A DNA stretch of 64,000 nucleotides. Origin: Parcubacteria group bacterium Gr01-1014_8. Lineage in GTDB: Bacteria > Patescibacteriota > Minisyncoccia > Phycocordibacterales > UBA2100. Shown here piece after piece: positions 3,067 through 54,339 of the stretch (position 1 is its first letter; the number at the start of each line of letters is the position of its first letter). Made by a program: the position numbers and the translations under genes. Below the pieces are notes generated by a model, which searched no databases, had not been told where the DNA came from, and saw only the letters and a list, made by a program, of their open reading frames with translations. The stretch spans positions 119,386-183,385 of the forward strand of contig VMGC01000005.1 of the NCBI GenBank assembly GCA_007376385.1. The letters are read 5' to 3'.

Positions 3067-3106
3067 AAATACCATAATGGTGCCGGTCGGCACCATTATG
3101 GTATTT
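3067..3106. repeat. palindromic hairpin repeat copy 1 (AAATACCATAATGGTGCCGGTCGGCACCATTATGGTATTT), followed by a T-rich run; probable bidirectional terminator between convergent genes
   Basis: Perfect 18-bp inverted repeat around the CCGGTCGG core. It belongs to a 5-copy family in this window. Confidence 0.6.
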
Positions 3107-3127
3107 CGTTTTTCATGGTGAGAAGCG

Positions 3128-3658
3128 TCAACCTGCGCTCTCTCGCTCGATAACGTCCTGTATCTCGCGAATATCTTTTACGTTCTCCATCCATCTGAGT
3201 TCTCTGTCTGTTTTCGAAATACCGAGGTGATGGTGCAAGGCATCATGCATACGCAATATTTTCGTTATTTCTGCTTCCGCACGCACGTCTATTTCGAAAT
3301 CCATCTGTTGGCGTAGGTCCGCAATTTTGCTCTGTCTGTTCTGGCTGATGAGGACGACGATGGCGAGACCGATTGCTTCAAGCGAGACTACCATCGTAAG
3401 GAGCCCGAATGGGAACGGGTCAAATATAGGGAGTCCTAGCCATCCCAGATTCCACTCTATCCAGCCGATGAAGAACCCCGCATGCCAGATCAGGAACCAG
3501 ACAGTGCCGAACTGTACGGTCATGAAATCGGCGACTTTATCGGTCCAGTGCCGCTCAAACTTGAGCTGGGACTTGAACATTTCAGCCTTATGCTTCGCCT
3601 TCTTTTTGTGCTCCTCTTTTACTTCAAGGGTATGTTTTATTGGCTCCATCTCCGGCAT
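3128..3658 (-). CDS. DUF1003 family membrane protein
   Basis: The motif LLTMVVSLEAIGLAIVVLISQNRQ is typical of DUF1003 and there are two TM segments. The ORF extends to 3685; an internal Met is the preferred start. Confidence 0.55.
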   Translation of the reverse strand: MPEMEPIKHTLEVKEEHKKKAKHKAEMFKSQLKFERHWTDKVADFMTVQFGTVWFLIWHAGFFIGWIEWNLGWLGLPIFDPFPFGLLTMVVSLEAIGLAIVVLISQNRQSKIADLRQQMDFEIDVRAEAEITKILRMHDALHHHLGISKTDRELRWMENVKDIREIQDVIERESAG

Positions 3659-3729
3659 CCTACCCCCGGCTCGACTTCTCCTCAACTGGCGTCTCGCGTT
3701 GGGCTCTCAAGCATGCCGATTGCGGAGGC

Positions 3730-3817
3730 CTTTATTGGCGAGCGTTGCGAGCGAAGCGAAAATGTATTCATTTTCATTTTCGAGCCGAGGAGCCAACATA
3801 GGGTCGAATACCCCGCG
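3730..3817 (-). repeat. element of about 88 nt, copy 1 (inverted relative to copies 2 and 3); a structured intergenic repeat
   Basis: Reverse complement of CCGCGGGGTATTCGACCCTATGTTGGYTCCTCGGCTCGRAAATG-hairpin-CATTTYRCTCGCAACGCTCGCCAATAAA. Copies 2 and 3 are at 38341 and 62216. The internal hairpin differs in sequence between copies but stays paired. Confidence 0.55.
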
Positions 3818-3830
3818 GTATGAATACCCT

Positions 3831-4196
3831 TTATTTTAAGAGCCTGTCGATAGCATCAATGATGCCTTGTGCTGATTCATCTGATTTCACTACGTAGCCG
3901 CGGATACCGAGCGCCATTCCTTCCGCGATGTTATCCATTGAAGACACGTTGGAGGTAATGAGTACAGGCGTTTTACCCTCGCCGTATTTTTTGTTCAGTT
4001 CCTTCAGGAATTGGAGGCCGTCCATTCCAGGCATCTTGATATCAAGAAGGATGCCGTCGGGCTGTGATTCGCTCATTTTTTGCAGCCCCTCGCTTCCGTC
4101 ACTCGCACATACCACTTCGTACTCTGCGCTGTCCAGCTCTCCTTTCATGAGACTCTTGAAAGTCTCGTCATCATCGATAATAAGTATTTTCTTCAT
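3831..4196 (-). CDS. single-domain response regulator (CheY-like receiver)
   Basis: An IIDDDE acidic pocket, the phospho-acceptor Asp context LLDIKMPGMDG, and a length of 121 aa. Confidence 0.85.
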   Translation of the reverse strand: MKKILIIDDDETFKSLMKGELDSAEYEVVCASDGSEGLQKMSESQPDGILLDIKMPGMDGLQFLKELNKKYGEGKTPVLITSNVSSMDNIAEGMALGIRGYVVKSDESAQGIIDAIDRLLK

Positions 4197-4416
4197 GGAC
4201 TAGTTGTTTCTTTTTGCGCCACCGGGAGGGTGAAATAAAATGTACTTCCGACCCCAACTTTGGTCACAACGCCGGTAATACCTCCGTGCCCCTATTATAC
4301 CCTTGGCGATGGCGAGCCCAAGGCCTGATCCTCGCATTCTCGGGATTGCCTTGTTATCGAAAACCAAAACGCCCAGCGATAGCGCGGGGCGTTCTCCACT
4401 CCTTTGTTAGAAGAAG

Positions 4417-8057: not shown

Positions 8058-8789
8058 ATGAATCAGATCTTATTTGGGGTTATTGCATTATTTATGTTCA
8101 CAATTACCGGTATAGGTATTGCGGAAGTAAAGACGCAAATGTTTACCAACGCAAACGGCGAGACTAACTCGGAGGTCATCTCTGACGACTCAGGGGCTGC
8201 GCGCGTCACATCTCAATCGCAAGTTTCAGCAGCGGCCGCTGCCTCTCCTAAGAATAGCGGCGGGGTTTCGGCGAGTGTAGGCGTAAACGCGAAGGCCGCC
8301 ACCACTGTTCCGGAAGTTTTGGCGGCGGTTGCCCGCGAGGTTGAGGGCGCACTATTTAGCGGCTGGAGCGATGACGGTGAGGACGAAAATGAGCACGAAT
8401 ATGGGGACGACGATGAGGACGATGAGGATAATCGCTCGTCGAATCGCACGTCTCAAACGAACACGGCTCCCGCGCCAACGCCAGCTCCTGCTCCAGCACC
8501 GACAGCATCATCGAACACAAGTACAAACACAAGCACTTCCGTGAGCACCGTTGCGACATTTACAATGTCCGATGTTGCAGCGCACAATTCATCAGCAAGT
8601 TGCTATTCGGCAATTGGCGGGTCAGTCTACGATCTCTCCTCGTTCGTGACAAAACATCCGGGCGGACAGGCGGCGATAAAATCCCTGTGCGGGGTAGACG
8701 GAACTGCGGCATATAACGGCCAGCATGGCGGGCAAGGCACTCCCGCATCGGTACTCGCACAATACAAAATCGGCGTCGTTGCCAACTAG
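8058..8789 (+). CDS. membrane-anchored protein with a C-terminal cytochrome b5-like heme-binding domain
   Basis: An N-terminal TM segment, an acidic/Pro-Ala-Thr-rich low-complexity linker (EDENEHEYGDDDEDDEDN, APAPTPAPAPAP), and a C-terminal FTMSDVAAHNS...YDLSSFVTKHPGG motif (HPGG heme-binding signature). Confidence 0.6.
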   Translation: MNQILFGVIALFMFTITGIGIAEVKTQMFTNANGETNSEVISDDSGAARVTSQSQVSAAAAASPKNSGGVSASVGVNAKAATTVPEVLAAVAREVEGALFSGWSDDGEDENEHEYGDDDEDDEDNRSSNRTSQTNTAPAPTPAPAPAPTASSNTSTNTSTSVSTVATFTMSDVAAHNSSASCYSAIGGSVYDLSSFVTKHPGGQAAIKSLCGVDGTAAYNGQHGGQGTPASVLAQYKIGVVAN

Positions 8790-14132: not shown

Positions 14133-14133
14133 T

Positions 14134-33466: not shown

Positions 33467-33490
33467 CTTTTTGACCCGTACGAAGGCGAA

Positions 33491-36467: not shown

Positions 36468-36480
36468 TCCGTATACCGTA

Positions 36481-38868: not shown

Positions 38869-38879
38869 CCTCGATGCCT

Positions 38880-39152: not shown

Positions 39153-40169
39153 ATGGCCTTTTCTTTCAGTCCAAAGCTCGGCATTGACCTCGGCACGACG
39201 ACCGTTCTCGTCTTTGTGCCGGGTAAGGGCATCGTATTGAACGAGCCGTCGGTCGTGGCTGTCTCCCAAGAAGAAAACCGCATTCTCGCGGTAGGAAACG
39301 ACGCGAAGGAAATGATAGGCCGAACCCCCGAATCTATCGTCGCGTATCGTCCTATGAAGGACGGCGTGATCGCCAACTACCGCGTAACCGAAGCAATGCT
39401 TCGCTATTTCATACGGAAGGCCCTCGGACGGTGGAATTTGTTCCGTCCCGAAGTAATGGTCAGCGTGCCAGCCGGGGTTTCTTCAACAGAGAGGCGCGCC
39501 GTCGTCGAGGCGGCGACAAAGGCGGGAGCGCGCCACGCATATGTGGTCAAAGAACCTATTCTTGCCGCGATAGGCGCTGGTATTCCTATCCACGAAGCGC
39601 GCGGACACATGATAGTGGACATCGGCGGAGGCACGACCGACGTTGCGGTTATCTCGCTCGGCGGTATCGTTGCGTCCACATCGGTAAAATGTGCGGGCAA
39701 TCGTATTGACCATGCGATAGCGGACTACGTGAAAAAAACATTCAATCTTTCAATTGGCGACAAAATGGCGGAGGAAATAAAAATTCACATCGGCTCTGCC
39801 GTTCCCGTTGATGAGGAATTGACGATGACGGTTAAAGGGCGGGACCATCTTACGGGACTTCCGCGTTCGATAGAACTCGGAACGAACGAAGTCGTACGTG
39901 CGGTGAGCCGTGAGCTTCGCATGATGGTTGGAGCAATTCGCGATGTGTTGCAGGAGACACCGCCAGAGCTCGCATCTGACATCATAGATAACGGCATTAC
40001 GATGACGGGAGGCTCTTCACAGCTTCGTAATCTGACGGAACTTGTATTTCGGCGCACAGGAGTGAAAGCGCGCGTAGCAAAAGATGCCCCATACTGCGTT
40101 GCAAAAGGCACTGGCGAAGCACTCAAACACTTGGACGTCTACAAAAAAGCGATTATCAGTAAACGATAA
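39153..40169 (+). CDS. mreB: rod shape-determining protein MreB (paralog 1, solitary)
   Basis: GIDLGTTTVLVFV, MIVDIGGGTTDVAVISLGG and the actin-fold phosphate loops. 338 aa. Confidence 0.9.
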   Translation: MAFSFSPKLGIDLGTTTVLVFVPGKGIVLNEPSVVAVSQEENRILAVGNDAKEMIGRTPESIVAYRPMKDGVIANYRVTEAMLRYFIRKALGRWNLFRPEVMVSVPAGVSSTERRAVVEAATKAGARHAYVVKEPILAAIGAGIPIHEARGHMIVDIGGGTTDVAVISLGGIVASTSVKCAGNRIDHAIADYVKKTFNLSIGDKMAEEIKIHIGSAVPVDEELTMTVKGRDHLTGLPRSIELGTNEVVRAVSRELRMMVGAIRDVLQETPPELASDIIDNGITMTGGSSQLRNLTELVFRRTGVKARVAKDAPYCVAKGTGEALKHLDVYKKAIISKR

Positions 40170-40300
40170 CGTTGTTGGAGTTTGATGTGGCTCGCCCAGT
40201 TAGAGGCGAAGCTCTCTGATGGGGACAAGAAAGCCATCATTAGCAAACGATAGGGTATCCTACAGGTAGCATCGTGCCCTTTTAGCGAGGGCTATTTGCG

Positions 40301-41686
40301 GTGTTGCCGATGGTCATAGATACAAAACCTTTGGAGGGAAGCCAGGAAGCGCAACTTCAGGCCGCGAAGGCCGTCTTCGACGTACTCGTCGCCAAATTCG
40401 AGCAGCCCGATCCGGAGGATCCGAATGCGGATCATTCGTTGCGCGACTTAGCCGTGCTGAATCCTTCCGACGAGAAGGAAAAATCTCCCGTCGAGAAGCG
40501 CCTATCGACAGAGTATGGTTACATGCCAGCAGAGATACAGTATGTCATTCGTAAGTTGTCCGAGATACGTGCGTTCGTCGATAATAATAAGAACTTCAGA
40601 ACAAAACAAAATCCTAATCCGGATGAGCGTGCGAAATTCTTGAAGGAATCTCTCTTTTTTACTGCGCACGCGGGATATTTGGATTCCGTCATCGCGCGGA
40701 AAAAGTATATTGATTTTCATGCCGAGCTAAGCAAGGACGTTAAGCTGCCGACAACGGAAGCTGAACGATTGCGGAAGGAGATATTCGAACATCTCGACAT
40801 GCTGAAGAGCGACCCGAAATTTCCGGAGGTGAGAATAATAGGTATCCGCGACAATGTAGAAGGTTATATGAAGTCGCTTGAGACGAAGGTGCTGGCTCCG
40901 GGTGTCAAAGACACGCATTCGTATCTTCGCGCGATACTGGGAATTACGACGCAGGCAGTGAATAGCCAGTTCAGCGTCGTAACCACGCCAGAACACGACA
41001 TCGCGACGAGAGCAGATGAAATAAAACATGAGGCTGCGCGTGGTCTTCTGGGAAGAGATACGAAAACAATACAGGCCGATATGGATGCGCAGATGGCAAA
41101 AGATGCCGTCATCGAAAAACTTCCGCTCGGCGTTCGAGTAGAAGGCGTCATGCCCGCAGACCCTGACATATCGTTCGTCATGGTACCTTCGCCATCGAGA
41201 CCAGCTGACTATGCGGTGTCATTTCCGGCAATCCCTCGCATTCGCGTGGCGAATGAACATCGATTGGCCAAGACGCCAGAAGGGCCGATAGAATTTCACA
41301 CGCACGTCACCAAACAAAATACTGTTGAAGAGATACGCGATGCTGCGTACGCGATCATGGAAAAAGAAGTCGGGCTCGTGAAGTTGTCCGCACAACCCGA
41401 GAAAATCGACCAAGGTGGCGATGATGCTTTTGCACGATTAGAGCAGCAGCTTGCGAATGCCTCGATGGTGCAAGTTCCGGACGTAGTGGGGGGAGAAACG
41501 TCTAGTGCCGCGCGTGCGGATGAGAATGCTCTCGATATTGATGAGCTGGAAACAAGATTGGCAAAGCAACTCGAGGAAGCAGTCGGCACATCAGCACCCA
41601 TTGATCGCGGTGACGGAGCCTTGCGGGTAGAAGATGTGGATACTGAAGAACTTATTCGGCGTTTGGACGCTATTATGCAACCATGA
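40301..41686 (+). CDS. hypothetical protein (gene A of the uncharacterised 10-gene block)
   Basis: 461 aa. No motif recognised. 4-nt overlap with the next gene. Confidence 0.45.
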   Translation: MLPMVIDTKPLEGSQEAQLQAAKAVFDVLVAKFEQPDPEDPNADHSLRDLAVLNPSDEKEKSPVEKRLSTEYGYMPAEIQYVIRKLSEIRAFVDNNKNFRTKQNPNPDERAKFLKESLFFTAHAGYLDSVIARKKYIDFHAELSKDVKLPTTEAERLRKEIFEHLDMLKSDPKFPEVRIIGIRDNVEGYMKSLETKVLAPGVKDTHSYLRAILGITTQAVNSQFSVVTTPEHDIATRADEIKHEAARGLLGRDTKTIQADMDAQMAKDAVIEKLPLGVRVEGVMPADPDISFVMVPSPSRPADYAVSFPAIPRIRVANEHRLAKTPEGPIEFHTHVTKQNTVEEIRDAAYAIMEKEVGLVKLSAQPEKIDQGGDDAFARLEQQLANASMVQVPDVVGGETSSAARADENALDIDELETRLAKQLEEAVGTSAPIDRGDGALRVEDVDTEELIRRLDAIMQP

Positions 41687-43785
41687 CCGACATTGGGGGT
41701 ATCAAGCCACCTTTGAAAGAACCAGAAACGCTCGATGATGTGATAGAGCTTGGTAAACCTCTGCGGACTGCGCTTACAGAGATTCTTCGGCGTGAACATG
41801 AGAATCGTTCGCTACCGGATGACGTAAAACGAAAAGCGGAAATAACCGAGGAAATTCGCAAATTAGCCGCGCATAAGGCACGGATCGTTTCCGCGATACC
41901 CACGGAAGAGCCCGCAGACGCAGAAACGGTCGAAACTGATCCACGGCCAGCTGAATCTGCCGGAGCAGCATTTGACCAACAAAAATTTAGAGATGCGGGA
42001 GAAGCATTCAAGCTCGTCGCCAGCGGACTGCATTTTTTTGTTGAACGAAATCTTGGGATGCCGGGTGTGCCCGTTGATGAGTCTCTCGCATCTGCGCTCG
42101 CAAATCCCAGAGGTGAGATTCTTGCAAAAATGAATGCTTTGGGATTGGGCAAGTCTGAGAGTAAACAAGATATGGACACAGTGGGGTTTGCTGCGGTCGC
42201 ATTTGGGCAAGCCCTCGCTATTTTTGGCGGGGACGATGCGCACATATCTGCGGAGCAAATGAAAAGTTTGGAATTAATGAAATTGCCGGAGCGGCTGCAA
42301 CGGCTTGCGAGCGCAATGGGAGTGATTCTCAATAAATATCCGCCTGTTGAGACCCCTGCACCCCAGCGTCCGGAAGCTGTGCCTCCTGTGGCGGCTCCTA
42401 ATATTCAGGATACAGCCGCTGCAGAAGCGTTGGAAGCTCTGAAAGCAGGTCTCGGACCCGCCGCGTCCGCCGCGGATACCCCGTCAAAGAATGGAGATGC
42501 AGCCGGGGGAGGCAGGGGAAGAAGAAAACGTCGAGGAAAAGGCGGAAACGCTCCGCCTGTTGGACCAGAAGCTCGTCCTCCAACAGATGCTCCAGAAAGA
42601 ATCGTTGAACCCGCGCCTGCGGCGAAGCCCAGGAAAGCGGAGCGAAAAGATGGGATAGTTGATGTCGGTCTGAAAAGAGCGGGAGCAGCAATTGCCGGTG
42701 GCTATAGAGGTGTTCAATCATGGCGCGAAACACGGCGGCAAGAAAATGAAGACAAATTATTGCAATCAGACGTTGACGCCAACACCCGTGCCAAATTCAA
42801 TGAACTCCAGAATCTTACAGATAAACACGGTAAGCTCACGTGGTCCGAGGCGGAAATGCGTAATCTGATGCTTGCTGTCGCGAAGATGGGTGAGTTGAAG
42901 CCAGAGGATTGGTGGAAATATCGGCCGTCGCTCTCGGGAGACGAAGCGCGCGCCTTACGCAGAGCACAACTACACTTCAGGAGAATCGACGTGAAGGCAG
43001 CTCGAAAGTTACGAAGTGAAGCTGATACGAAACGGAGAGCAGCAGAAGCTGCAGAATCGAAACGGCTGGAAGATATCGCGGCTCAAAAAAGAAACGTCGA
43101 CCGAATGAACCGGCGGGCTGAGAAAGGGAAGGGAAAATTGTCCCCCGAGGAGGTCGTAGCACTTGGGCAGGCGTGGAAAAGTAGAAAGAAACTTGCCGAT
43201 GGAAGCACATTCACTGAAACAGATGCGCTGAAGTATATGGCCTTGTTCGGAGGTCTATTGGGAAAAGCGGCCGACACGATCATACTCACGGCTGAGAAAC
43301 AAAAAATAATTGACCGTGCTGCTGAAGTGCTATTTCCATTGTGGGAAAAGGAGCGGATTGAAAGACGAGATAAAAGACGCGCTGCGGTCGCCGACGTCGC
43401 TCGCCGAAGCATGGCAGCAACCCGCAGTGGTTTAAGAGGTGCGGTGACCGGAGCGAATACACGGGTTCGAGAACGATGGACCAAGCGACAGGAACGTCAA
43501 CGCGCGGAAGCCGCTAAAAAAACGGCACCGGCTGTAGAAACACCGCTCGCAGTATCTCCTGAAACGGGCAAAGCAGATCTGACGCCTGTCGAGCGCAATG
43601 TTCTTGAAGGGCTGGTCATCGGTGGCAATGTTAAAAGGGCTGACGCGGACGTATTTCTCGCAGTATGGGGTCGCCCCGGCAATAAGGGTGCACCGCAAAG
43701 TGATGTCGAGCGTGCAGCTTTTGATACGGTCAATAAAGCACTTGAGCCTCATCGCAGATACGTGCAGTCGACTCTTACGGCCTAG
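41683..43785 (+). CDS. hypothetical protein, highly charged with a disordered Gly/Arg/Lys/Pro-rich region (gene B)
   Basis: 700 aa. The low-complexity segment GGGRGRRKRRGKGGNAPPVGPEARPP and Lys/Arg/Glu-rich helical stretches. Confidence 0.45.
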   Translation: MTDIGGIKPPLKEPETLDDVIELGKPLRTALTEILRREHENRSLPDDVKRKAEITEEIRKLAAHKARIVSAIPTEEPADAETVETDPRPAESAGAAFDQQKFRDAGEAFKLVASGLHFFVERNLGMPGVPVDESLASALANPRGEILAKMNALGLGKSESKQDMDTVGFAAVAFGQALAIFGGDDAHISAEQMKSLELMKLPERLQRLASAMGVILNKYPPVETPAPQRPEAVPPVAAPNIQDTAAAEALEALKAGLGPAASAADTPSKNGDAAGGGRGRRKRRGKGGNAPPVGPEARPPTDAPERIVEPAPAAKPRKAERKDGIVDVGLKRAGAAIAGGYRGVQSWRETRRQENEDKLLQSDVDANTRAKFNELQNLTDKHGKLTWSEAEMRNLMLAVAKMGELKPEDWWKYRPSLSGDEARALRRAQLHFRRIDVKAARKLRSEADTKRRAAEAAESKRLEDIAAQKRNVDRMNRRAEKGKGKLSPEEVVALGQAWKSRKKLADGSTFTETDALKYMALFGGLLGKAADTIILTAEKQKIIDRAAEVLFPLWEKERIERRDKRRAAVADVARRSMAATRSGLRGAVTGANTRVRERWTKRQERQRAEAAKKTAPAVETPLAVSPETGKADLTPVERNVLEGLVIGGNVKRADADVFLAVWGRPGNKGAPQSDVERAAFDTVNKALEPHRRYVQSTLTA

Positions 43786-43849
43786 ACATATCCACTGCCA
43801 CCTCGACCTCTGCCACCTGAGGTTTGTTTAGTTGTTATTATGAGAGTTC

Positions 43850-45091
43850 ATGACGGACCTGTCCGATGCGCAACGACGGAATGAGCCTATCGTGGAGCTG
43901 GCAAATGCTCCGACCAAAGACATCCGTAATGAAGCGATTTTGATGGCAGTCCAGCGGTCAGGGCATCCACCGGCGAGTTTCGTTGAGATACGCGGCCATA
44001 TTACAAATGCGGCCGAAATGAAGCGTGTGGAACAAACCACTCGCCTTACATCAGGAACAAGTATTCGGCTTGGCGCTATCGTAAACGACGCTACGACTAT
44101 CATTAAGAATGCCCAAAATACGGTGAGAGGAAGACTGCTTCGTGCGTGGGCAAGAGAGATTGCAGAGAGAGCGGGGCCCATCGTAATGTCAAATCGGTTG
44201 AACGATGACATCACAAATGAAGTGTACGCGGCGCTTACAAGCGCTAATCCGCTGCAGACATTGCAAGCTTTTCGCACCAACCCGAATAGCAATGGACTGC
44301 GAAGAGTGTTGGACCCTCGTTGGCAAGCAATAGTAAAGGGCGTCCAACAGTATGAGCCGCGGACCGCGAAAAATTCTATAACGGATAACGGCGAAATTCT
44401 GCAGATCATCCAAAGTTGGCGCACGGCCGGCATACCGATCGGCGGGGTTCACGCGGACCCGTTGCTCGCAACCCTTCCCCGTGATGAGGATAGAGTGCGC
44501 GCAAAAGCGCTGATAAAAGGGAATCAATATCTTGCCAATCTGAAGCCAGAGGATCTCGGCAAGTTATCCGACTCACAGAGGAGTCTTTTGGCTGAATACA
44601 AAGGCTCTTCGACAAGGCGAAAGGGGCAGCTTCGCGGACAATTTGCCGGAATTGCCGCCATCGAAGCAACGGCTGAAGGACGACCTTACGGAAGAGCGGA
44701 AAAAGCACGGGCGAGAGGGGCGGAAGCAGAAAGTGCTGAATTCCTTGCATTGCTTCACTCTGGATATTCCGATGCATCTCCGCCGATACCTGGACTAACG
44801 CAGCCCGAATATGATTGGTATTTGCAGAACAGAGGTGCGCGCGTTCGTGGTCTCTCTGCACGCGCTCCAGCCGGTACGACTGGTCGTTCTATAATGGCGA
44901 AAGTTCAGGCGATCCGTACCGAGCAGGTCAGACGGTCAACACCCCACGCATCGCCTGAATCACCAGCGCGCAGAACAGCTCCCGTAGAGCAACGGGTACC
45001 TGAAGCATCTGCTGCCGGTGCGGACAACTTAAGTAAGCAGGTTGATGCTGAGATCGCAGAGATGCTTAGAAAGTATGGTGGCGCGCAGTAA
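43850..45091 (+). CDS. hypothetical protein (gene C)
   Basis: 413-aa ORF. Confidence 0.45.
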   Translation: MTDLSDAQRRNEPIVELANAPTKDIRNEAILMAVQRSGHPPASFVEIRGHITNAAEMKRVEQTTRLTSGTSIRLGAIVNDATTIIKNAQNTVRGRLLRAWAREIAERAGPIVMSNRLNDDITNEVYAALTSANPLQTLQAFRTNPNSNGLRRVLDPRWQAIVKGVQQYEPRTAKNSITDNGEILQIIQSWRTAGIPIGGVHADPLLATLPRDEDRVRAKALIKGNQYLANLKPEDLGKLSDSQRSLLAEYKGSSTRRKGQLRGQFAGIAAIEATAEGRPYGRAEKARARGAEAESAEFLALLHSGYSDASPPIPGLTQPEYDWYLQNRGARVRGLSARAPAGTTGRSIMAKVQAIRTEQVRRSTPHASPESPARRTAPVEQRVPEASAAGADNLSKQVDAEIAEMLRKYGGAQ

Positions 45092-45111
45092 CCCAGTAGA
45101 AAATATTTGAT

Positions 45112-45912
45112 ATGATTGACCGTAATGCTTTACCAAATGGGATACGAAAACTTGCTATGAGCCTGGATAGACTAGGACCAGCCGGAGGTACACCAGAAGG
45201 GCCGGAGCGAGCGAATCATGAGCTCGAGAAATTCATGCAGCATCTGGCGCTGAAAGAGGGCATCAACGTCAATGACATGCGGCATTACCGCAATAAAGGT
45301 ATGCGGCGCGGCTTTGCCCACGTTCGCGAGACAGGATGGGATGTGGCAAAGTATTTTGTCGGCGGTATAGCGGCTCAACTTATACATAAGCTCGCTGGTA
45401 ATGTAATTGGGGGAATGAACAGTGCCGGTGCAAAAATACCAAAGTTCGTACAAACCGCTTCATTTTTTATACCAGCAATTGCGCTAAGGCGTTACTCCGG
45501 TTTGGTCAATGAGAATCGAGCTGTGCTCGATGCGGCACGAGTGGTGGATAGGGTATGGAAGGACCCAGTTGCCCGTCAGCAGCTCATTGATGCCGTGAGA
45601 GATAATAATACGGGAGAGTTAGATCGTCTCCAAAAAGATAAGGACCACGGTCCAGTGTTTAAAACGATCCGAAAATGGTTGCCACGAACTCTTGCTGGGC
45701 TCTCGGGTATCGGAGTAGCAGCTTCAGGTTATGAAGGACTTGCTTCATTTATCACTACGCTTTACTTGCGACCAGATCTGATGCCTGCCGCGCTCGCCAA
45801 TCTTCCCGTGAAGGGTGTTTCAGAGGTTGGGAAAATGGGTGTGGAGATAGGCGGTCATTTGAAAGATGGAGCCATGGGAATCTGGGGATTCATTTCAAAA
45901 TTTATTAGATAA
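45112..45912 (+). CDS. hypothetical protein with hydrophobic segments (gene D)
   Basis: 266 aa. Two hydrophobic stretches (FFIPAIALRRY…, LAGLSGIGVAASGYEGLASFITTLYL). Confidence 0.45.
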   Translation: MIDRNALPNGIRKLAMSLDRLGPAGGTPEGPERANHELEKFMQHLALKEGINVNDMRHYRNKGMRRGFAHVRETGWDVAKYFVGGIAAQLIHKLAGNVIGGMNSAGAKIPKFVQTASFFIPAIALRRYSGLVNENRAVLDAARVVDRVWKDPVARQQLIDAVRDNNTGELDRLQKDKDHGPVFKTIRKWLPRTLAGLSGIGVAASGYEGLASFITTLYLRPDLMPAALANLPVKGVSEVGKMGVEIGGHLKDGAMGIWGFISKFIR

Positions 45913-45993
45913 CATCTGACTATTATTCAAGAGTGCAATAAAATCGGTGCTATGATGAGGGGCAATGCATCGCACGCGGTGTTTTCATAAAAA

Positions 45994-46377
45994 GTGCATA
46001 TGACAAACAATAAACAGACTTGGGATGAATTTCGGACGATGATTGCGACTGAACTTGGTATTCAGAGCCTTCCGGCGGAAAAACAGGTAGAAATCATTGA
46101 AGAAATTGGTGAGGCTCTGATGGACAGAGTAATTCTTGCCGTGTGGAAAAAAGTCCCGCCGCAAGAACTAGCAAAGATGGCAGAAAAAGCCAAGCGTGAG
46201 GATGATGAAACTGGTTCCGACCCGCGTCGCGCGCTGGAATTCTTACAGCAATATGAACAGTACATTCCAAATTTTGCACAGTTTCTGGATAGCGAAATAC
46301 GCGCAGGGCTTCAAGCGTATCGAGCATTCATGCTCGGTGCGGGCGCCACTCAAACTTCTTCGAAAAAAGCGGCCTAA
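45994..46377 (+). CDS. small helical protein, paralog E1 (divergent member of the E family)
   Basis: 127 aa. Shares the pattern (LG/IGE-L--RV-L-----P-E......Y-P......EIRAG) with E2 and E3. Confidence 0.45.
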   Translation: MHMTNNKQTWDEFRTMIATELGIQSLPAEKQVEIIEEIGEALMDRVILAVWKKVPPQELAKMAEKAKREDDETGSDPRRALEFLQQYEQYIPNFAQFLDSEIRAGLQAYRAFMLGAGATQTSSKKAA

Positions 46378-46392
46378 TGTGGGTCACGTCGT

Positions 46393-48081
46393 ATGATTCG
46401 ACTGTGGCCTCGAGGTGCAGAAAGTGCGACGGCAGCTCCGGAGATGAGTGCGCCTCTTCGCGAACTGAGTAATGTTCTGCAGAGGGGTCGCGGCGGGTCG
46501 CTCGCTGATGCGGCAAGAAATATTGAGAACCGAGCGAGGAATATTTCCAACGTGCAAGGCCCCGAAGCGGAGCAGCTATTGCGAGATAATAATTTGCTTC
46601 GATTGAGAGCTCTTCAGCAAGAGAATCGACTCAATCCGGGGCGTGCGGCGCACATTCAACAGGAAATAAGAGAGATAAATCAAGAAATGGCTGGGTTGAC
46701 GGGAATCGCAGCGACGCCCGCGGGCTCACCCGCGATTGATAATGTCGCCGCAGGACATTCAGACCCGACCGTGCAAGCGCTTGGCGCTCAAATGTCTCGT
46801 ATCGAAGCGATGCTTCGCGGAATGCCGGGCGGCGCAGTCGGAGGAACCGGGATGCACCCCATGTGGATGGCGCATCCGATGTGGTCTGTAGGGGGATACG
46901 GTGGCGCTCCTGGCGGCGGGAGGCCGTATCAACTAGGCGATATCGGGCCTGATGGCACGCCTATTGTTGCGGCTGGAAATGCGCTAAACGAGCAAAGAAT
47001 TCGAGAGATATTTGCAGAAGAGCTGGCGAAACATAAGGCTGCGACCGATGCGCAATTGCAGGCGCAGAATGGAGATCCGAATATCAAACACATCAGTGAA
47101 GGGCTTCAGAAGATCGGAAAGGGTCGATGGTTCCGCGCTGCGTTAGTTGCGGCGGGCATAGCGGGAACAACCGCGATACTTACCGGTTCAGGCGGTTTTG
47201 CAGCACCTGTTGTGCCGTATCTCATGAACGCGTTGCTTGCGTGGGGTGCCTCCAGTACCGTTGCCACTGTAGGAACAGGCGCTGCGGTGGGCGCAGGTGT
47301 GTTCACGCCGCTTTGGGCAATGCGCGGAGTTGGACGCACGATCAAGGCTGATCGAGCTCTGCGAAGAGAATATGGTAACAACATATATGTCTCGGGGAAA
47401 CTGCGTCAGATGTTATTTAAGGAACCGTTTAAGGGCGCACTTCTTGGCGGAGTCATTGGTGCGTTGCTTGGGTATCCGTATCCCGGGGGCAAGACGGGCG
47501 CGGAGTACGTTAAGGGGGGCGCACTAAACGTATGGAAAGATCCTTGGACCCTCTGGACTACGCCAAAGGGCTGGCTCTCGTGGTTATGGTCAAACATTCC
47601 GTGGCCAACCTCTTCTCCCGACTGTCTGCGCTGTTCACCTGGGATACACTTTTCAGCTCTTACTGAGCAACTTAATTTTATTTCTCCCGCCGTCGCTGCA
47701 GAAGCCGCGACAGCAGCCGCGCCAGCTTCTTCATGGCCGGTTTCTCTTGGTTCAGTCGGATTGGGAGCTGCAGGAGGCATGGCTCTCAATAGATTAACTA
47801 CGCCGAAAGCTGCCGCGCTCGATGCCGGAGCAGAAGCAGTGAAATTTACGCCAGAGGCTGTCTGGAAAGATGCGAAGCTAACGCCTGCACAAAAAAATAC
47901 GTTGACAGGATTCGCGAATACGATCATGCCCGGCGAAACGGACATGCGAAAGATAGTAGAAAAAGTCAGCAATCGCGACTTGGGTTCGGATCTGCTGCTC
48001 GCTATCTCAAGGTCCGGATGGTCTCCGCCCGAAATGGAACAAGCGATGATACCCCTGAGGAAACTGCGCAATCCACTTTGA
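46393..48081 (+). CDS. hypothetical membrane-associated protein F1 (coiled-coil N-terminus, Met/Trp-rich segment, Gly-rich hydrophobic helices)
   Basis: 562 aa. GMHPMWMAHPMWSVGGYGG. TM-like RAALVAAGIAGTTAILTGSGGFAAPVVPYLMNALLAWGASSTVATVGTGAAVGAGVF. Confidence 0.45.
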   Translation: MIRLWPRGAESATAAPEMSAPLRELSNVLQRGRGGSLADAARNIENRARNISNVQGPEAEQLLRDNNLLRLRALQQENRLNPGRAAHIQQEIREINQEMAGLTGIAATPAGSPAIDNVAAGHSDPTVQALGAQMSRIEAMLRGMPGGAVGGTGMHPMWMAHPMWSVGGYGGAPGGGRPYQLGDIGPDGTPIVAAGNALNEQRIREIFAEELAKHKAATDAQLQAQNGDPNIKHISEGLQKIGKGRWFRAALVAAGIAGTTAILTGSGGFAAPVVPYLMNALLAWGASSTVATVGTGAAVGAGVFTPLWAMRGVGRTIKADRALRREYGNNIYVSGKLRQMLFKEPFKGALLGGVIGALLGYPYPGGKTGAEYVKGGALNVWKDPWTLWTTPKGWLSWLWSNIPWPTSSPDCLRCSPGIHFSALTEQLNFISPAVAAEAATAAAPASSWPVSLGSVGLGAAGGMALNRLTTPKAAALDAGAEAVKFTPEAVWKDAKLTPAQKNTLTGFANTIMPGETDMRKIVEKVSNRDLGSDLLLAISRSGWSPPEMEQAMIPLRKLRNPL

Positions 48082-48121
48082 TATGCAGGGAAATCAATAT
48101 TAACAGTTATACTTAACACAT

Positions 48122-48469
48122 ATGGACCCACAGCAATTAATGGCACAGGGGAGAGAGATGCTCGTGAAGGAGCTGAACCTTGCGCATTTGACGGAAGAGG
48201 AACAGGACCAGATACTCGACGGGCTCGGGGAGGTGTTGCTCCGCCGCGTACTTTTGAAGATGTTGGAACTAATGCCAGAGAGCGAGCGGGAGAATTTTGG
48301 TAAATTATTTGCCGCGCAAGACGCTGAAGGTATGCAAGCGGTCGTCGTAAAGTACATTCCGAACGCGAACGACGTCATCAAGGCAGAACTTCGCGCGGGA
48401 ATCGACGAACATAAGCGATTGGTTGGAGAAGCCGTCGCGAGAGATGCAGCAAGCGCACCGACTCCATAA
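48122..48469 (+). CDS. small helical protein, paralog E2
   Basis: 115 aa. About 65 percent identity by eye to E3 (PQQLM-QGR-ML--ELNL-HL…ILD-LGEVLL-RVLLK…NFGKLFA-QDA-GMQAVV-KY-P…AELRAGIDEHKRLV). Confidence 0.5.
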   Translation: MDPQQLMAQGREMLVKELNLAHLTEEEQDQILDGLGEVLLRRVLLKMLELMPESERENFGKLFAAQDAEGMQAVVVKYIPNANDVIKAELRAGIDEHKRLVGEAVARDAASAPTP

Positions 48470-48474
48470 GAAAC

Positions 48475-49317
48475 ATGAACGGGCTTGATTCGCCCACAGG
48501 CGATAGGAACTCACACCCCGATCCCGTGATTAGACAACTGATTGAGCAGGCAAATAGGATTGAGGCGCTGGTGCAAGAGCGGATGTCGGGAATGGGGGGC
48601 ATGAGTGCGATGTGGCAGTCTCCCGTAGCATTCCAGAGGGTTAATCAATTCGCGCCAGCAAGTGCGGCTTCACTGCGTGGACAATTGAATACACCGACGA
48701 GGCCGGAAAGCGCCCTCGCAGACATAGCGACCCTGAAACGCGTCGTTGGCGAACAACAGGCGTGGATAGATGCACAGCCGGTGAGAAAACACATTAAAGA
48801 AGGTTTAGAATTGTTGAAGAAAGAGCCAACCACGTGGGGGCGCATCTTGCAAAATACGCTTCTCGTCGCGAGCGGCATCACGTATACGGCGCTCGCTTCC
48901 AAACATCTAACGTCAGGGTTTTCGTTGGCGATGCTTACCGGCCTCGGCATCCCCGCGGCGATTGCGGCCTCTGCTATCGTTGCAGTACTTCCTGCACTTG
49001 CCATCACCGGTCTGAGGGCCAGACGAGCAATACGCGAGGCATCCGACCTTTTGAAACAAAAATATGGACAAGGAGGTAAAGACGTTATCGTCGAAGGAAA
49101 AGGCTGGCGGTTCCTTCGAATGACCGGACGTTCCGCCACAATAGATGTCGTCGTCGCGGCGCTCCTCGTTGGAGGTTTAATGGAAATGAAAATGCCATGG
49201 CTAGGGCCAGATACATCTCCGGCAGATGTGGTGAGGCAAACCGCAGAAACGGTTTGGAAAGGCGCAGGCAATGCAATAAGTACCTTGTGGGGGCTCATCA
49301 TGCGCCGAACGCCATAG
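48475..49317 (+). CDS. hypothetical membrane protein F2
   Basis: 280 aa. A GMGGMSAMWQSP motif resembling F1. 3-4 TM helices. Confidence 0.45.
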   Translation: MNGLDSPTGDRNSHPDPVIRQLIEQANRIEALVQERMSGMGGMSAMWQSPVAFQRVNQFAPASAASLRGQLNTPTRPESALADIATLKRVVGEQQAWIDAQPVRKHIKEGLELLKKEPTTWGRILQNTLLVASGITYTALASKHLTSGFSLAMLTGLGIPAAIAASAIVAVLPALAITGLRARRAIREASDLLKQKYGQGGKDVIVEGKGWRFLRMTGRSATIDVVVAALLVGGLMEMKMPWLGPDTSPADVVRQTAETVWKGAGNAISTLWGLIMRRTP

Positions 49318-49332
49318 AACGGTCATACGTTA

Positions 49333-49692
49333 ATGTATACTCTTTCTATGAACCCTCAACAGTTAATGACACAAGGGCGAGCGATGCTCATTGAAGAGTT
49401 GAACCTGATGCATCTGCCGGAACTTGAGCAAAATGAGATACTCGACCAGCTTGGGGAAGTATTGCTTCAAAGAGTGCTTCTCAAGTTGCTAGACATGCTG
49501 CCGGAGAATGAGCGAGACAATTTTGGAAAACTTTTCGCTTCGCAGGATGCGCAGGGTATGCAGGCGGTTGTCTCAAAATACGTGCCACATGTAGACGAAG
49601 TGATTAGAGCAGAACTTCGCGCAGGAATCGACGAACACAAACGGCTCGTCAATGAAGCCGCAGCAAAGGAAGAAACTGCGCAGGCCGCATAA
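49333..49692 (+). CDS. small helical protein, paralog E3
   Basis: 119 aa. See E2. Confidence 0.5.
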   Translation: MYTLSMNPQQLMTQGRAMLIEELNLMHLPELEQNEILDQLGEVLLQRVLLKLLDMLPENERDNFGKLFASQDAQGMQAVVSKYVPHVDEVIRAELRAGIDEHKRLVNEAAAKEETAQAA

Positions 49693-49698
49693 CGCAGC

Positions 49699-50325
49699 AT
49701 GGACACGCTGCGCGCATCGGGAGCCGAGAAACAAAAAGCCATGGAAGTTGCCGCGCGAGCGGCGTTCGGAGAGCTCGAAGAAAAATTGGCGCAGCTCGGG
49801 AAAGTTTCCGAGGAGGATTTGTGGTCTTACGGTGTCCCCACTGGAGACAGTCGTGATGCGATTCGCAGGCTAGTTGCGATACGAGAAGTTGTTGCGAGAC
49901 ACAAACCGTTAGCCGAGAAACCAGAGCTTTTAGGCAGTGAAGCTGAAAAGTTTGTTCAGTGGTCTTCTACTTTTTCAAACGCTGTCAGTTATCTCAACTA
50001 TTTGCTCGGGAAGCGAGACGATACTGATACATTTCAAGAAAAGCGTAAGGAAGAAAGCGCCAAGTGGACATCGGTAGTGGCAGCGCATCGAGATATCACA
50101 ACTCTATTGAACTCTCTCGCGGAGCAGAAGCTGCAGAAATATTCGGCGGAGACGATACTGGGCCTTTCTCGCAATGCGGAGACGCTTGTCGAAGAAGCGA
50201 GAAACTCCAGCGAACAAAGGGACGGTGCTCTTAAGTCTTTGCAGGATATGTTGGGTGGACTTCGAAAAGACGCGCTTACCGCGCAATACGAACGGGAGCA
50301 CGCAGACGATTTCCCACACATGTAA
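49699..50325 (+). CDS. hypothetical helical protein (gene G, last of the block)
   Basis: 208-aa ORF. Confidence 0.45.
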   Translation: MDTLRASGAEKQKAMEVAARAAFGELEEKLAQLGKVSEEDLWSYGVPTGDSRDAIRRLVAIREVVARHKPLAEKPELLGSEAEKFVQWSSTFSNAVSYLNYLLGKRDDTDTFQEKRKEESAKWTSVVAAHRDITTLLNSLAEQKLQKYSAETILGLSRNAETLVEEARNSSEQRDGALKSLQDMLGGLRKDALTAQYEREHADDFPHM

Positions 50326-50332
50326 GAAATCG

Positions 50333-50881
50333 TTAGAACATCGGCTTTACGTCCTTCGGTTTTTCAGTTCTTTTGAGCTGCTCGACTTCCTCAATTAGTT
50401 TTTGAAGTGTTGATTCGATGCTCACAAGCGTTTCTTTCTGCTGTTCTTTGCGCCTCTCTTCTTCCGCGGCTTCTGCATTTTCTTCTTCGGTCATCTCCTC
50501 GACATCTTCTCCTATTCCCTCAACGTCTTCGCCTATCTCTTCGATGTCTTCCTGCAATTCATCAACGTCTTCCGAGATCTCCTCAACGTCCTCTTGAATT
50601 TCGCCCACGTCTTCCTGGATTTCTTCCACATCCTCCCGCACTTCCGCGATGCTTGCCGCTTGATAGTTAATCGTCATTTGGATGAAAATCGCGAGATAAA
50701 TGGCTTCCAGCGAAACTATTGTCGTAAGCACAAGTAGCATGCGGTCGAGGTTGAGGATGTCGAACCATACCGCGAGGAAGCTTCCCGCAAACAGGATCGT
50801 ATGGATGATGATGGAGGCGGGGGAGCCCACAAAGCGCGTAACGGTCAATGCCGTTTTTTGAATGTCTTTAAATTCGGACAT
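50333..50881 (-). CDS. DUF1003 family membrane protein with a C-terminal acidic tandem repeat
   Basis: LTTIVSLEAIYLAIFIQMTINYQA is the DUF1003 motif. The repeat is (EDVEEIQ/EDVGEIQ/EDVEEIS…) over 7 units, encoded by 24-bp tandem DNA repeats at about 50470-50650. Confidence 0.6.
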   Translation of the reverse strand: MSEFKDIQKTALTVTRFVGSPASIIIHTILFAGSFLAVWFDILNLDRMLLVLTTIVSLEAIYLAIFIQMTINYQAASIAEVREDVEEIQEDVGEIQEDVEEISEDVDELQEDIEEIGEDVEGIGEDVEEMTEEENAEAAEEERRKEQQKETLVSIESTLQKLIEEVEQLKRTEKPKDVKPMF

Positions 50882-50962
50882 CGCGCCGAGTATACCTTAA
50901 GAGAAATTAACTGTCCTGTCGGTTACGCACAGTTTTTCGTCTCAATTGTTTAGTTCATTGTA

Positions 50963-50998
50963 ATACCTTAGTGGTGCCGGTCGGCACCACTAAGGTAT
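50963..50998. repeat. palindromic hairpin repeat copy 4 (ATACCTTAGTGGTGCCGGTCGGCACCACTAAGGTAT)
   Basis: Perfect 16-bp stem with the same core. Confidence 0.6.
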
Positions 50999-51794: not shown

Positions 51795-51887
51795 TCCACC
51801 CCGTGAGATAAGGTTTTAATTAGCCTTTAGCTCGGGACTTCTTCAGTAGCGGCATGTCCATCGCAATTATATTACGCAAATTATCTC

Positions 51888-52460
51888 ATGGGGTATAATG
51901 GTTCGACAATGGCATACGATTTTAAGGTGTTAGAGGGAAAACTAGCAAAGGCGAAGGAATGGCTTGGGAGCGAATTTCGCACTCTGCGCACAGGCAGGGC
52001 CACGCCGGCAATTCTGGACGGTGTCTCCATATCTGCGTACGGCTCCATGATGCAATTGAAGCAACTCGCGACCATATCAATAGAAGACGCTCGCTCCCTT
52101 CGCGTGCAGGCGTTCGACCCTTCGACTATCAAGGATATCGAGCGGGGTATTACGAATGCGAATCTGGGGTTAGGCATCAGCTCTGACAATACCGGCGTGC
52201 GCGCCACGTTTCCCGAACTTACCGGCGAGCGCCGGGAGCAGTTGATTAAATTAGCGAAAGCGAAATTGGAGGATGCGCGTCAGACTGTTCGTATTGCGCG
52301 CGACGAGACGTGGAAGGACATTCAAGAACAGGAGAAAGCGGGCGGCATCAGCGAGGATGATAAATTTCGCCTCAAAGACGAGATGCAAAAGAAAGTCGAC
52401 GCGATGAACGAAGAATTGGAAAAGGCGTTCGAACATAAGGAGAAGGAGATGAATAGCTAA
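51888..52460 (+). CDS. frr: ribosome recycling factor
   Basis: RTGRATPAILDGV, the central RRF fold, and a C-terminal KDEMQKKVDAMNEELE. The start is possibly at 51909. Confidence 0.9.
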   Translation: MGYNGSTMAYDFKVLEGKLAKAKEWLGSEFRTLRTGRATPAILDGVSISAYGSMMQLKQLATISIEDARSLRVQAFDPSTIKDIERGITNANLGLGISSDNTGVRATFPELTGERREQLIKLAKAKLEDARQTVRIARDETWKDIQEQEKAGGISEDDKFRLKDEMQKKVDAMNEELEKAFEHKEKEMNS

Positions 52461-52465
52461 GACAT

Positions 52466-53200
52466 ATGGCCACTCCAGAGGGAGAACAAAAGAATCCGCC
52501 GGTCCCTAAAGGGGACGAATACTGGAAGAACTATTCCGAGCTTGCGAAAAGAAAACGAGTGATGCCGCGGCTCGATGGAAGACTGGCGTATGATGTCATA
52601 AAGACCGTGCGCGAGATCGAATCTCGGTTGCTGATGTTCCCTGGTTTCGTCGGGATCGGTCCCAGGGGTTCTAGGTGGGATGGATATGCGCTGCCGACTT
52701 CCGACTACGATATCGTGGTTCTCATCGATTCGTCGGCGCCTAATTACAATCCGGCCGTTATGAAAGCGGCCGCATACGATATCCGTGATTCGTGGGCTCC
52801 TGAACAGGGGATACGCATACATTTCGATTTTGAGGACATGGCACGCATCGTTCACGACGATGATCTTACGCGCGTTGGCGTGGGACATTTGCAGACGCTG
52901 GCGGCTCTTGGTGGCGATGTCATCGGACCGAAATTGAAGGAGTATCGGAAAATAGCGCACGACAAATTAGAGAACCTGCCCACAGAGAGACGTGAGAAAT
53001 TGCTCTCCAATGTCGCTGCCTTGCGTCTTGATCAGGAAGATACGCGTTCTACGAGGATCCATGAGCGCATCAATGGCCACGCGTTACAGACATATTCACC
53101 GGCACGAGCCCGAGCAGCCCGCACTCGGCTTTGGGAAAGGAAGATCTTCAAGACCTTTGGCATTCGCGATACATCTTTGCCCGAGAAACCGAAATCATGA
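52466..53200 (+). CDS. minimal nucleotidyltransferase (Pol-beta superfamily) domain protein
   Basis: GSRWDGYALPTSDYDIVVLID matches the hG[GS]x(9-13)DhDhhh motif. It sits between frr and rseP, with a 4-nt overlap with rseP. Confidence 0.55.
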   Translation: MATPEGEQKNPPVPKGDEYWKNYSELAKRKRVMPRLDGRLAYDVIKTVREIESRLLMFPGFVGIGPRGSRWDGYALPTSDYDIVVLIDSSAPNYNPAVMKAAAYDIRDSWAPEQGIRIHFDFEDMARIVHDDDLTRVGVGHLQTLAALGGDVIGPKLKEYRKIAHDKLENLPTERREKLLSNVAALRLDQEDTRSTRIHERINGHALQTYSPARARAARTRLWERKIFKTFGIRDTSLPEKPKS

Positions 53201-54285
53201 CAACAGCGCTTCTTGTCATCGGGATACTCGTGTTTCTTATCGTCGTCCATGAATTTGGGCACTTTGCGGCCGCAAAGATATTCAGAGTACGTGTTGAGGA
53301 ATTCGGCGTCGGGTACCCGCCGCGTGCGTTTCTCATCGTAAAATTTGGGGATACTGAATATACGTTGAACTGGATTCCTTTTGGAGGATTCGTGCGGCTG
53401 TATGGCGAGAGCGAAGCGGCCCCGAAAGTTCGGGGGAGTTTTATCGGCTCTCCTCGGTATGTGCAAGCCCTCATTCTTGTTGCGGGAGTCCTGATGAACG
53501 CCGTCGCAGCATGGGTGCTTTTCGCAGGGGCGCTCTACGTCGGCATCCCGCACGCGGTTCCAAGCGATGCTAAGGCAGAGAATGTTCGACTCCTCGTGAG
53601 TACCGTCGTAGACGGTTCTCCTGCTGCTGCATCGGAAATTCGGCAAGGAGACGAAATAATGTCTATCACTGATGAAAAAGGGAAATCACCGGCATTAAAT
53701 CCGGAAGCGGTAGTGGAATTTGTCGGAGGGCGCGGTGGCGAGGCGCTTGAAATAACGTATCTTCGCGGACTGGAAAAGAAGACTGTCATCGTACATCCGG
53801 CGCACGCAGTTCTTTCAAAGGAAGCGAATAGACCAGCTCTCGGGGTAGGGCTCGTCATGGTAACCAGCGATCCGGTTCCTGCATGGGAAGCGCTTAAACA
53901 ATCGTTGCCGATAACAGCAGATAAATTGTGGTCGGTATTCCAAGGTCTTGGCGGGATGATCACGAATGCGTTCAGAGGGGCCTCTGTGTTGGAGGGGGTT
54001 GTTGGGCCTGTCGGGCTCGTTGGCGTGGTTGGGAACGCAGCGCAACATGGCTTCGGGAGCGTGCTTATTCTCGCCGGATTCATTTCGTTGAATCTAGCGG
54101 TCGTGAATTTGTTGCCGGTTCCGGCATTGGATGGAGGAAGGCTCGTGCTCCTAGGAGTTGAGGCTCTCATGCAGCGAAATGCCCCGAAGCTTGCAGTGCA
54201 TTTGCTGAACACGCTTGGCGTCGGGCTCATCATCGTCTTGATGGTTGCGGTAACGTACAACGATATTGTGCGTCTGGTTGGGTAG
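53197..54285 (+). CDS. rseP: RIP metalloprotease RseP (site-2 protease)
   Basis: HEFGHFAAAK (the HExxH in TM1), a PDZ domain, and a C-terminal LDGG motif. The ORF track start at 53131 is disfavoured. Confidence 0.85.
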   Translation: MTTALLVIGILVFLIVVHEFGHFAAAKIFRVRVEEFGVGYPPRAFLIVKFGDTEYTLNWIPFGGFVRLYGESEAAPKVRGSFIGSPRYVQALILVAGVLMNAVAAWVLFAGALYVGIPHAVPSDAKAENVRLLVSTVVDGSPAAASEIRQGDEIMSITDEKGKSPALNPEAVVEFVGGRGGEALEITYLRGLEKKTVIVHPAHAVLSKEANRPALGVGLVMVTSDPVPAWEALKQSLPITADKLWSVFQGLGGMITNAFRGASVLEGVVGPVGLVGVVGNAAQHGFGSVLILAGFISLNLAVVNLLPVPALDGGRLVLLGVEALMQRNAPKLAVHLLNTLGVGLIIVLMVAVTYNDIVRLVG

Positions 54286-54301
54286 GCTCTAACTTTTCGA
54301 C

Positions 54302-54339
54302 CATACCTTACTTGTGCCGGTCGGCACACCTAAGGTATG
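54302..54339. repeat. palindromic hairpin repeat copy 5 (CATACCTTACTTGTGCCGGTCGGCACACCTAAGGTATG)
   Basis: Same core, with one stem mismatch. Confidence 0.6.

Follow-up and report, generated by a model that had tools for sequence, protein, structure and literature searches.

A 64-kb stretch of the metagenome-assembled genome (MAG) 'Parcubacteria group bacterium Gr01-1014_8', an uncultured groundwater bacterium of the candidate phyla radiation (CPR), raises the question of what the short palindrome is that recurs between its genes, and how its copies came to be there. This stretch, referred to as the window, sits in the ENA metagenome contig ERZ27284378:k139_616945 (189,832 bp). A sequence-only reading had described in it a family of five intergenic palindromic hairpins with an invariant core, and had named as options an element like the repetitive extragenic palindromic (REP) sequences, one like the miniature inverted-repeat transposable elements (MITEs), or a terminator or processing signal peculiar to the lineage. 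The core GTGCCGGTCGGCAC (14 nt) was indeed found five times as an exact match, at positions 3080, 36491, 38893, 50974 and 54314, always on the + strand and always intergenic according to gene calls. Chance predicts 0.42 matches with as many as 2 mismatches tolerated, and the observed count was reached in none of 100 shuffles. The copies descend from one master sequence and, together with a sixth one outside the window, they make up what we are inclined, on balance, to regard as a lineage-specific, REP-like dispersed hairpin repeat.

The repeated unit is 36 nt long. Reading of the sequences and their alignment gave the architecture ATACC-N6-GTGCCG-GT-CGGCAC-N6'-GGTAT; the variable block, previously taken as 7 nt, is really 6 nt long, the first G of the core having been counted twice. 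Likeness between copies breaks off sharply at the outer ATACC/GGTAT, and comparison of 250-nt flanks revealed no larger common element, no target motif and nothing alike between copies. Copy 1 (3069-3104, +; ATACCATAATGGTGCCGGTCGGCACCATTATGGTAT) forms a perfect 16-bp stem closed by a GGTC loop, and its flanks lengthen the stem to 18 bp. Copy 2 (36480-36515, +; ATACCTTAATGGTGCCGGTCGGCACCCTTAAGGTAC) carries one internal U·C mismatch and a T to C change of its last base, and therefore ends in GGTAC, so that the outer ATACC…GGTAT is not common to all copies as had been claimed. The stem of copy 3 (38882-38917, +; ATACCTTAGTAGTGCCGGTCGGCACTACTAAGGTAT) is perfect and is lengthened to 20 bp by the flanks CTAA/TTAG. 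Copy 4 (50963-50998, +; ATACCTTAGTGGTGCCGGTCGGCACCACTAAGGTAT) also has a perfect stem and equals the consensus, and copy 5 (54303-54338, +; ATACCTTACTTGTGCCGGTCGGCACACCTAAGGTAT) has two adjacent uncompensated mismatches (TTACTT opposite ACCTAA) that open a 2x2 internal loop. Copies 1, 3 and 4 are thus perfect palindromes except for the central GT, and all copies have one and the same asymmetric loop with this non-palindromic GT at its centre. It is this shared asymmetric centre, with the sharp ends and the unrelated flanks, that establishes common descent. A 7-nt tandem duplication, CCGTATA-CCGTATA-CC, lies at 36469-36484 on the 5' side of copy 2 and overlaps the ATACC of the element; it may be a footprint of slippage or insertion, and it has no equivalent at the other copies.

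Within the window the repeat occurs as the whole palindrome and in no other form. The 17-nt arm ATACCTTAGTGGTGCCG has 10 matches where 0.04 are expected, every one within palindromes. When the hairpin-type inverted repeats of the window are ranked by length, copies of the 36-nt palindrome take the first three places. The covariance-model search that had been proposed for the genome was run on the window with filters off: the model built from the five copies recovered these five exactly and no weaker copy. These data bear on the idea that the palindromes are inverted pairs of a DNA-uptake sequence, comparable to the pairs of DNA uptake sequences (DUS) in Neisseria or uptake signal sequences (USS) in Haemophilus that double as terminators. 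CPR bacteria probably rely on taking up DNA, and paired uptake sequences behind genes are known in other bacteria. Such a system would however be expected to show the arm as many single copies, and no unpaired 17-nt arm was found in the 64 kb, coding or non-coding, even at up to 3 mismatches; moreover, the sequence of the arm is variable and the density of about one element per 14 kb is far sparser than that of known uptake sequences. We consider this explanation very improbable.

All copies fold, as RNA or as single-stranded DNA, into a single hairpin with a 16-17-bp stem, counted here as 16 pairs with the 4-nt GGTC loop. Folding energies lie between -23.6 and -33.5 kcal/mol for the RNA (z between -4.3 and -8.4), with equal stability on the complementary strand, and between -10.2 and -17.1 kcal/mol for the DNA. 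On the alignment of six copies (the five of the window and the sixth described below), 11 of the 16 stem pairs are invariant and 3 are changed on both sides, in 5 cells; 4 cells are unpaired and G·U pairs are absent. The covariation score was matched by 1 of 500 shuffles only and by no slid register. Changes are found at 13 of 72 positions of the N6 blocks, 0 of 84 of the core and 1 of 60 of the outer five pairs; this concentration in the N6 blocks indicates that the base of the stem and its apex are constrained in sequence, and the middle in pairing only. The covarying stems that had been reported are therefore real for copies 1, 3 and 4 and for 3 of the 16 pairs, and do not extend to copies 2 and 5, whose mismatches are uncompensated and which are decaying. 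The further statement that compensatory change means selection went too far, as two of the six copies decay in this manner and as the same pattern would arise without selection if copies were made from variant masters or if quasi-palindromes underwent templated correction.

The two invariant blocks of each arm are symmetric and about 11 bp apart, which would suit a site in duplex DNA that is recognised by a protein dimer (a recombinase, a global regulator or a nucleoid or partition protein, for instance), with ATACC and GTGCC contacted by each monomer in successive major grooves. Copy 4 and the sixth copy lie in promoter-proximal DNA, as might be expected of such a site. But if the duplex were recognised, the middle block would have no need to remain self-complementary, and yet it covaries. 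The flanking genes are functionally unrelated (phosphoenolpyruvate (PEP) synthase, hpf/fmt, mreB, holB, rseP/proS), neither isolated half-sites nor shorter versions are present in the window, and the same promoters lack the element in the relative L053 described below. A duplex site is, in our opinion, improbable.

A leftward walk along the contig added 19.4 kb and brought the total examined to 83.4 kb. The first 9.5 kb contained one new copy and the next 10 kb none, so that the family passed the test on which it could have failed, the existence of further copies. This sixth copy, c0 (8699-8734 of the record L054, equivalent to -785 to -750 of the window; ATACCTTAGTGGTGCCGACCGGCACCACTAAGGTAT), is inverted and is the exact reverse complement of copy 4. 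Uniform + orientation of the family was given up on this account; orientation is 5:1 over the six copies, which is not significant. The palindrome is the most abundant dispersed repeat of the 83.4 kb, with its 6 copies amounting to about one per 14 kb. Spacings between successive copies, c0 included, are 3.8, 33.4, 2.4, 12.1 and 3.3 kb, the nearest neighbours being copies 2 and 3, of equal orientation.

The same strain was recovered from a second sample (Logan SRR8863434), with 0 differences over 24 kb, and copy 3 is identical in this independent assembly. This matters because assemblers can create perfect palindromes, and one match from the JGI metagenomes that resembled copy 3 (L051) was rejected as exactly such a fold-back: it lies at the end of a contig of 66% GC, inside an open reading frame (ORF). 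That the family itself is an artefact of this kind, or a product of chance, is a negligible prospect: none of the copies is at an end of the 190-kb contig, copy 3 recurs unchanged in another sample and with a second assembler, and chance is excluded by the statistics of the core and the arm. The assemblies also carry a trace of the repetition. Contig SRR8863434_24663 (L049), assembled by Logan at k=31, corresponds to 38398-50992 of the window; it starts in copy B of a second repeat family and ends exactly 30 nt (k-1) into copy 4 of the palindrome, as these coordinates would lead one to expect of a repeated 36-mer. Assemblies of the host organism at short k appear to be broken up by both repeat families.

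The genomic setting of the copies was then considered. Coding sequence makes up 85.5% of the region, and by the gene calls all six copies fall outside it (p about 2e-6 to 9e-6). Copy 1 lies between the convergent genes for PEP synthase and a DUF1003 protein, 32 nt from the stop at 3036 and 23 nt from the stop at 3128. Copy 2 lies between hpf and fmt, also convergent, at a distance of 12 nt from the stop of the former (36467) and of 137 nt from that of the latter (36653). Copy 3 follows the stop (38868) of a conserved 91-aa ORF by 13 nt and precedes mreB (39153) by 235 nt. Copy 5 lies in the spacer between rseP and proS, 17 nt past the stop of rseP (54285) and about 72 nt short of the start of proS (54411). 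Copy 4 follows no gene 3' end: it is placed between divergent starts, 81 nt from that of a DUF948/DUF1003-like gene (50881, - strand) and 130 nt from that of a holB-like gene (51129, + strand). The inverted c0 lies 149 nt after one + strand gene and 64 nt before the next. Four of the six copies thus begin 12-32 nt past the stop of a gene on the strand that carries the GGTC loop, and a gene 3' end is included in five of the six intergenic regions. Proximity to stop codons is a trend only, with a combined p of 0.20 once intergenic lengths are considered.

The terminator option had been put forward for copy 1, on the grounds of the convergent genes and a T-run, and this part was confirmed. Copy 1 is the only copy that passes a scan for intrinsic terminators made of a hairpin plus T-tract; it is preceded by an A-run and followed by TTTCGTTTTTC, and when the other strand is read the hairpin has UUUUGGAUUUG after it. 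This copy may have been co-opted as a terminator. As had been noted, the other copies have no clear U-tract: a T-run is absent after copies 2, 4, 5 and c0, and copy 3 is followed by just TTT. Since only copy 1 meets the T-tract rule, the palindrome family as a whole is not a class of intrinsic terminators, and the position of copy 4 between divergent starts speaks against that assignment as well.

A wider form of this idea is that the palindromes are selected signals at RNA 3' ends, acting as terminators free of a U-tract, as stabilisers against 3'-exonucleases or as processing sites for RNase III or another protein. An RNA-binding protein would read apex and base, and function would keep the copies; this is compatible with a REP-like origin. 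The same-strand stops just upstream of four copies, the gene 3' ends in five of the intergenic regions, the fit of copy 1 to the intrinsic-terminator pattern on the + strand and UUUUGGAUUUG after the hairpin on the other, the very stable RNA stems and the covariation are all consistent with it. However, stop proximity loses significance when intergenic lengths are taken into account, copy 4 and the inverted c0, 149 nt from a stop, fall outside the pattern, and five of the six copies do without a T-tract although canonical terminators of hairpin plus T-run are present elsewhere in the genome, e.g. at 33445-33473. G·U intermediates are lacking among the variant pairs, and the orthologous genes of L053 manage without the element. 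We regard a selected RNA signal as possible, though rather unlikely.

How specific the family is to its host was assessed in relatives and databases. Of the relatives found, the closest is L053 (Logan SRR29476933), in which a fast-evolving 266-aa protein is 54% identical and which retains the gene order hpf-fmt-def-(91-aa ORF)-mreB...DUF948-holB-frr-rseP-proS. The palindrome is absent from all four of its orthologous intergenic spacers, two of which are just 17 and 29 bp long compared to 185 and 247 bp in the window. Its absence at orthologous sites indicates that the palindrome is a lineage-specific addition and not an old regulatory site. Other relatives, reached via a flanking 141-aa protein (79% and 60% identity), had no copies. 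Among 185,579 reference genomes (GTDB representatives) no member of the family was found; 47 matches to the core plus ACC/GGT were rejected as single chance matches in coding DNA of high-GC genomes, corresponding to peptides of the VPVGT type. A free-loop scan of the JGI metagenomes gave three unrelated palindromes and no family member, and a scan of IMG/VR gave zero matches. Nothing except tRNAs reached the gathering score of Rfam; around copy 3, Rfam gave only sub-threshold generic hairpins such as miRNA precursors (E >= 0.09). The literature held no match to the palindrome sequence and no report of dispersed palindromic repeats in CPR bacteria, and a full-text search returned no paper linking REP elements to Patescibacteria genomes.

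Among the options named at the outset, a REP-like element is the best supported, by the sharp borders, the unrelated flanks, the extragenic position, the single asymmetric loop and the absence from orthologous sites. This reading follows from common descent, extragenic confinement, a hairpin with covariation and species specificity in addition to that absence. Several observations weigh against it. The 83.4 kb examined contain six copies only. All of them are singlets at least 2.4 kb apart, and no inverted doublets or clusters of the type of REPINs (REP doublets) occur. No copy has a target-site duplication or a conserved flanking target in its 250-nt flanks. The gene for a REP-associated tyrosine transposase (RAYT), which it had been suggested to look for nearby, was not found: precomputed Pfam hits of the gene calls across the 83.4 kb include no Y1_Tnp/RAYT domain, and Pfam scans of 20 selected ORFs, which left aside a few ORFs in 50-56 kb, revealed no Y1/RAYT domain. 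Presence/absence polymorphism was not observed, the sole second sample being the identical strain.

With these points set against it, we still lean towards the REP-like reading, and propose how such a repeat might work. The element would spread, or would once have spread, as the hairpin substrate of an enzyme acting in trans and encoded elsewhere in the genome, for which a RAYT or IS200-type HUH enzyme would be the obvious candidate. The enzyme would read two invariant blocks separated by one turn of the helix, ATACC/GGTAT at the base of the stem and GTGCC-GGTC-GGCAC at its apex. The 6-bp middle block would only have to pair, which would explain the compensated variation. Inserted copies would be retained where harmless, mostly just past stop codons, and might be co-opted at the level of the transcript, copy 1 as a bidirectional terminator and others as 3' stem-loops. 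A bolder version, which we think unlikely, holds that the hairpin-recognition system is new to CPR/Patescibacteria, being either the first partnership of the REP-RAYT type there or a RAYT-independent protein that would read a bipartite hairpin, conserved at base and apex and free in the middle, so as to move it or to process transcripts.

If a REP-like family is indeed present here, hairpin repeats persist even in extremely reduced CPR genomes. These genomes are very small and gene-dense, and the complete MAG would be worth searching for an enzyme or an RNA-binding factor that reads base and apex. On the practical side, the 36-mer breaks k=31 assemblies of the host organism, and the family could serve as a strain marker.

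The region has other features of its own. Its gene content is compatible with a CPR bacterium (PEP synthase, hpf, fmt, def, two mreB, mreC, PBP2, holB, frr, rseP, proS, greA) and includes many proteins with peptidoglycan-binding domains or without known family. The second repeat family, unrelated to the palindrome and about 85 nt long, has five copies, each of which precedes the start codon of a small gene of unknown function by 6-165 nt and has the sense orientation of that gene. These copies are at 3731-3818 (-), upstream of the DUF1003 gene 3128-3658; 38341-38428 (+), upstream of the 91-aa ORF at 38593; 62221-62301 (+), upstream of a 154-aa ORF at 62307; 27221-27309 (-), upstream of a 138-aa ORF at 26674-27090; and 27852-27933 (-), upstream of a 172-aa ORF at 27305-27823. 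Their consensus reads ...GCTCGGAAATG-[variable 10-12-bp hairpin]-CATTTCACTCGCAACGCTCGCCAATAAA, and RNAalifold predicts an outer helix around the hairpin, with compensatory double changes in 9 of 20 pairs. The family had no match in Rfam at the gathering score (all copies) or at the E-value threshold (38341-38428 tested), and is absent from the syntenic relative L053. It is a candidate for a structured 5' leader or for a second small mobile repeat. Palindrome copies 1 and 3 lie in turn behind two of the genes that it precedes, the DUF1003 gene and the 91-aa ORF respectively. The 91-aa ORF (38593-38868), between def and mreB, has no Pfam family; it is conserved in L053 (3066-3338), where no gene was called, and is probably a real small gene.

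A further motif, TCTCATGGGGTAYAAT, has 4 matches at up to 3 mismatches against 0.54 expected, at 36078-36093, 51884-51899, 20990-21005 (-) and 21085-21100. At frr, its TATAAT overlaps the annotated ATG (51888); at hpf, the start lies 9 nt after the motif when the longest ORF is taken (36102) and 39 nt after it with the gene call (36132). The motif may be a promoter of the extended -10 type that yields a leaderless mRNA or one with a very short leader, at least for frr.

A repeated gene module at 45994-50325 consists of small DUF5663 proteins alternating with large membrane or low-complexity proteins without Pfam family; two of the DUF5663 genes (48122-48469 and 49333-49692) are 72% identical in DNA over 300 nt, and another is at 45994-46377. 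Three ORFs have in common a conserved 79-nt 3' segment (29344-29422, 30399-30477 and 32204-32282; 84% and 62% identity). The third segment belongs to a gene with glyoxalase and 3-dmu-9_3-mt domains, so that a gene family seems to have expanded locally. At 60897-62958 and 62947-63987 six tRNA genes of the - strand are clustered, with a tRNA-Ala(cgc) on the + strand. An ORF resembling serine recombinases, with Recombinase and Zn_ribbon_recom domains, overlaps the 3' end of this tRNA-Ala gene some 2 kb from the end of the contig; the overlap may mark the edge of an integrated element. A defence and repair island (L055, 4985-8565), about 11-14.5 kb beyond the left edge of the window, carries a GmrSD type IV restriction enzyme, the very-short-patch endonuclease Vsr and a C5 cytosine methyltransferase. 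A connection of this island with the CCGG-containing apex of the palindrome was considered and dropped; CCGG-type sites are not depleted in the region and no link could be shown.

Known systems offer several comparisons. A CRISPR array or an integron attC series was rejected in view of the irregular spacings and of housekeeping-gene surroundings that are syntenic with a relative lacking the repeats. The ends of IS200/IS605 elements are sequence-specific hairpins of about 20-40 nt read as single-stranded DNA by HUH enzymes, and MITEs are small non-autonomous repeats; the palindrome resembles both in this respect. It differs in having no internal sequence, no left/right asymmetry, no adjacent conserved target tetranucleotide and no target-site duplication. 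The MITE-like option is accordingly not supported, the unit being 36 nt made of two arms and a 2-4-nt centre only, with no flanking direct repeats. Terminator hairpins of conserved sequence are also known, e.g. the TRIT motif of Mycobacterium tuberculosis and the terminators formed by paired DUS/USS. They share with the palindrome a common-sequence hairpin behind genes, often between convergent ones, and copy 1 has A and T tracts on its two sides. In contrast to them, the family here has five of six copies without a T-tract, one copy in a divergent promoter region and no unpaired motif.

The closest comparison is with REP sequences and the 'long palindromic REP singlets' of Enterobacteria and Pseudomonas (Stern 1984; Bertels & Rainey 2011, PMC3116915, PMC3337134). 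REPs are short, abundant, extragenic imperfect palindromes with a palindromic core of about 14 nt, and long palindromic singlets have been described too (PMC3337134); it is usually as REPINs that they are moved, by a RAYT gene which is present in single copy and which they flank (PMC3337134, PMC5581495). The differences are that no RAYT gene was seen in the 83.4 kb and neither REPIN doublets nor clusters like bacterial interspersed mosaic elements (BIMEs) occur, that the flanks of the core are themselves complementary and so make one 36-nt hairpin, and that the host is a CPR/Parcubacteria genome. As doublets are absent and no RAYT gene was found in the 83.4 kb, the family is treated as REP-like in its working and not filed as a proven REP/RAYT member. 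The family resembles REPs in that the palindromes are short, dispersed, strictly extragenic and imperfect, their sequence is species-specific, their palindromic core of about 14 nt is comparable to GGGGGCTTGCCCCC in P. fluorescens, some copies are flanked by A- and T-runs and usable as terminators, and the singlets decay.

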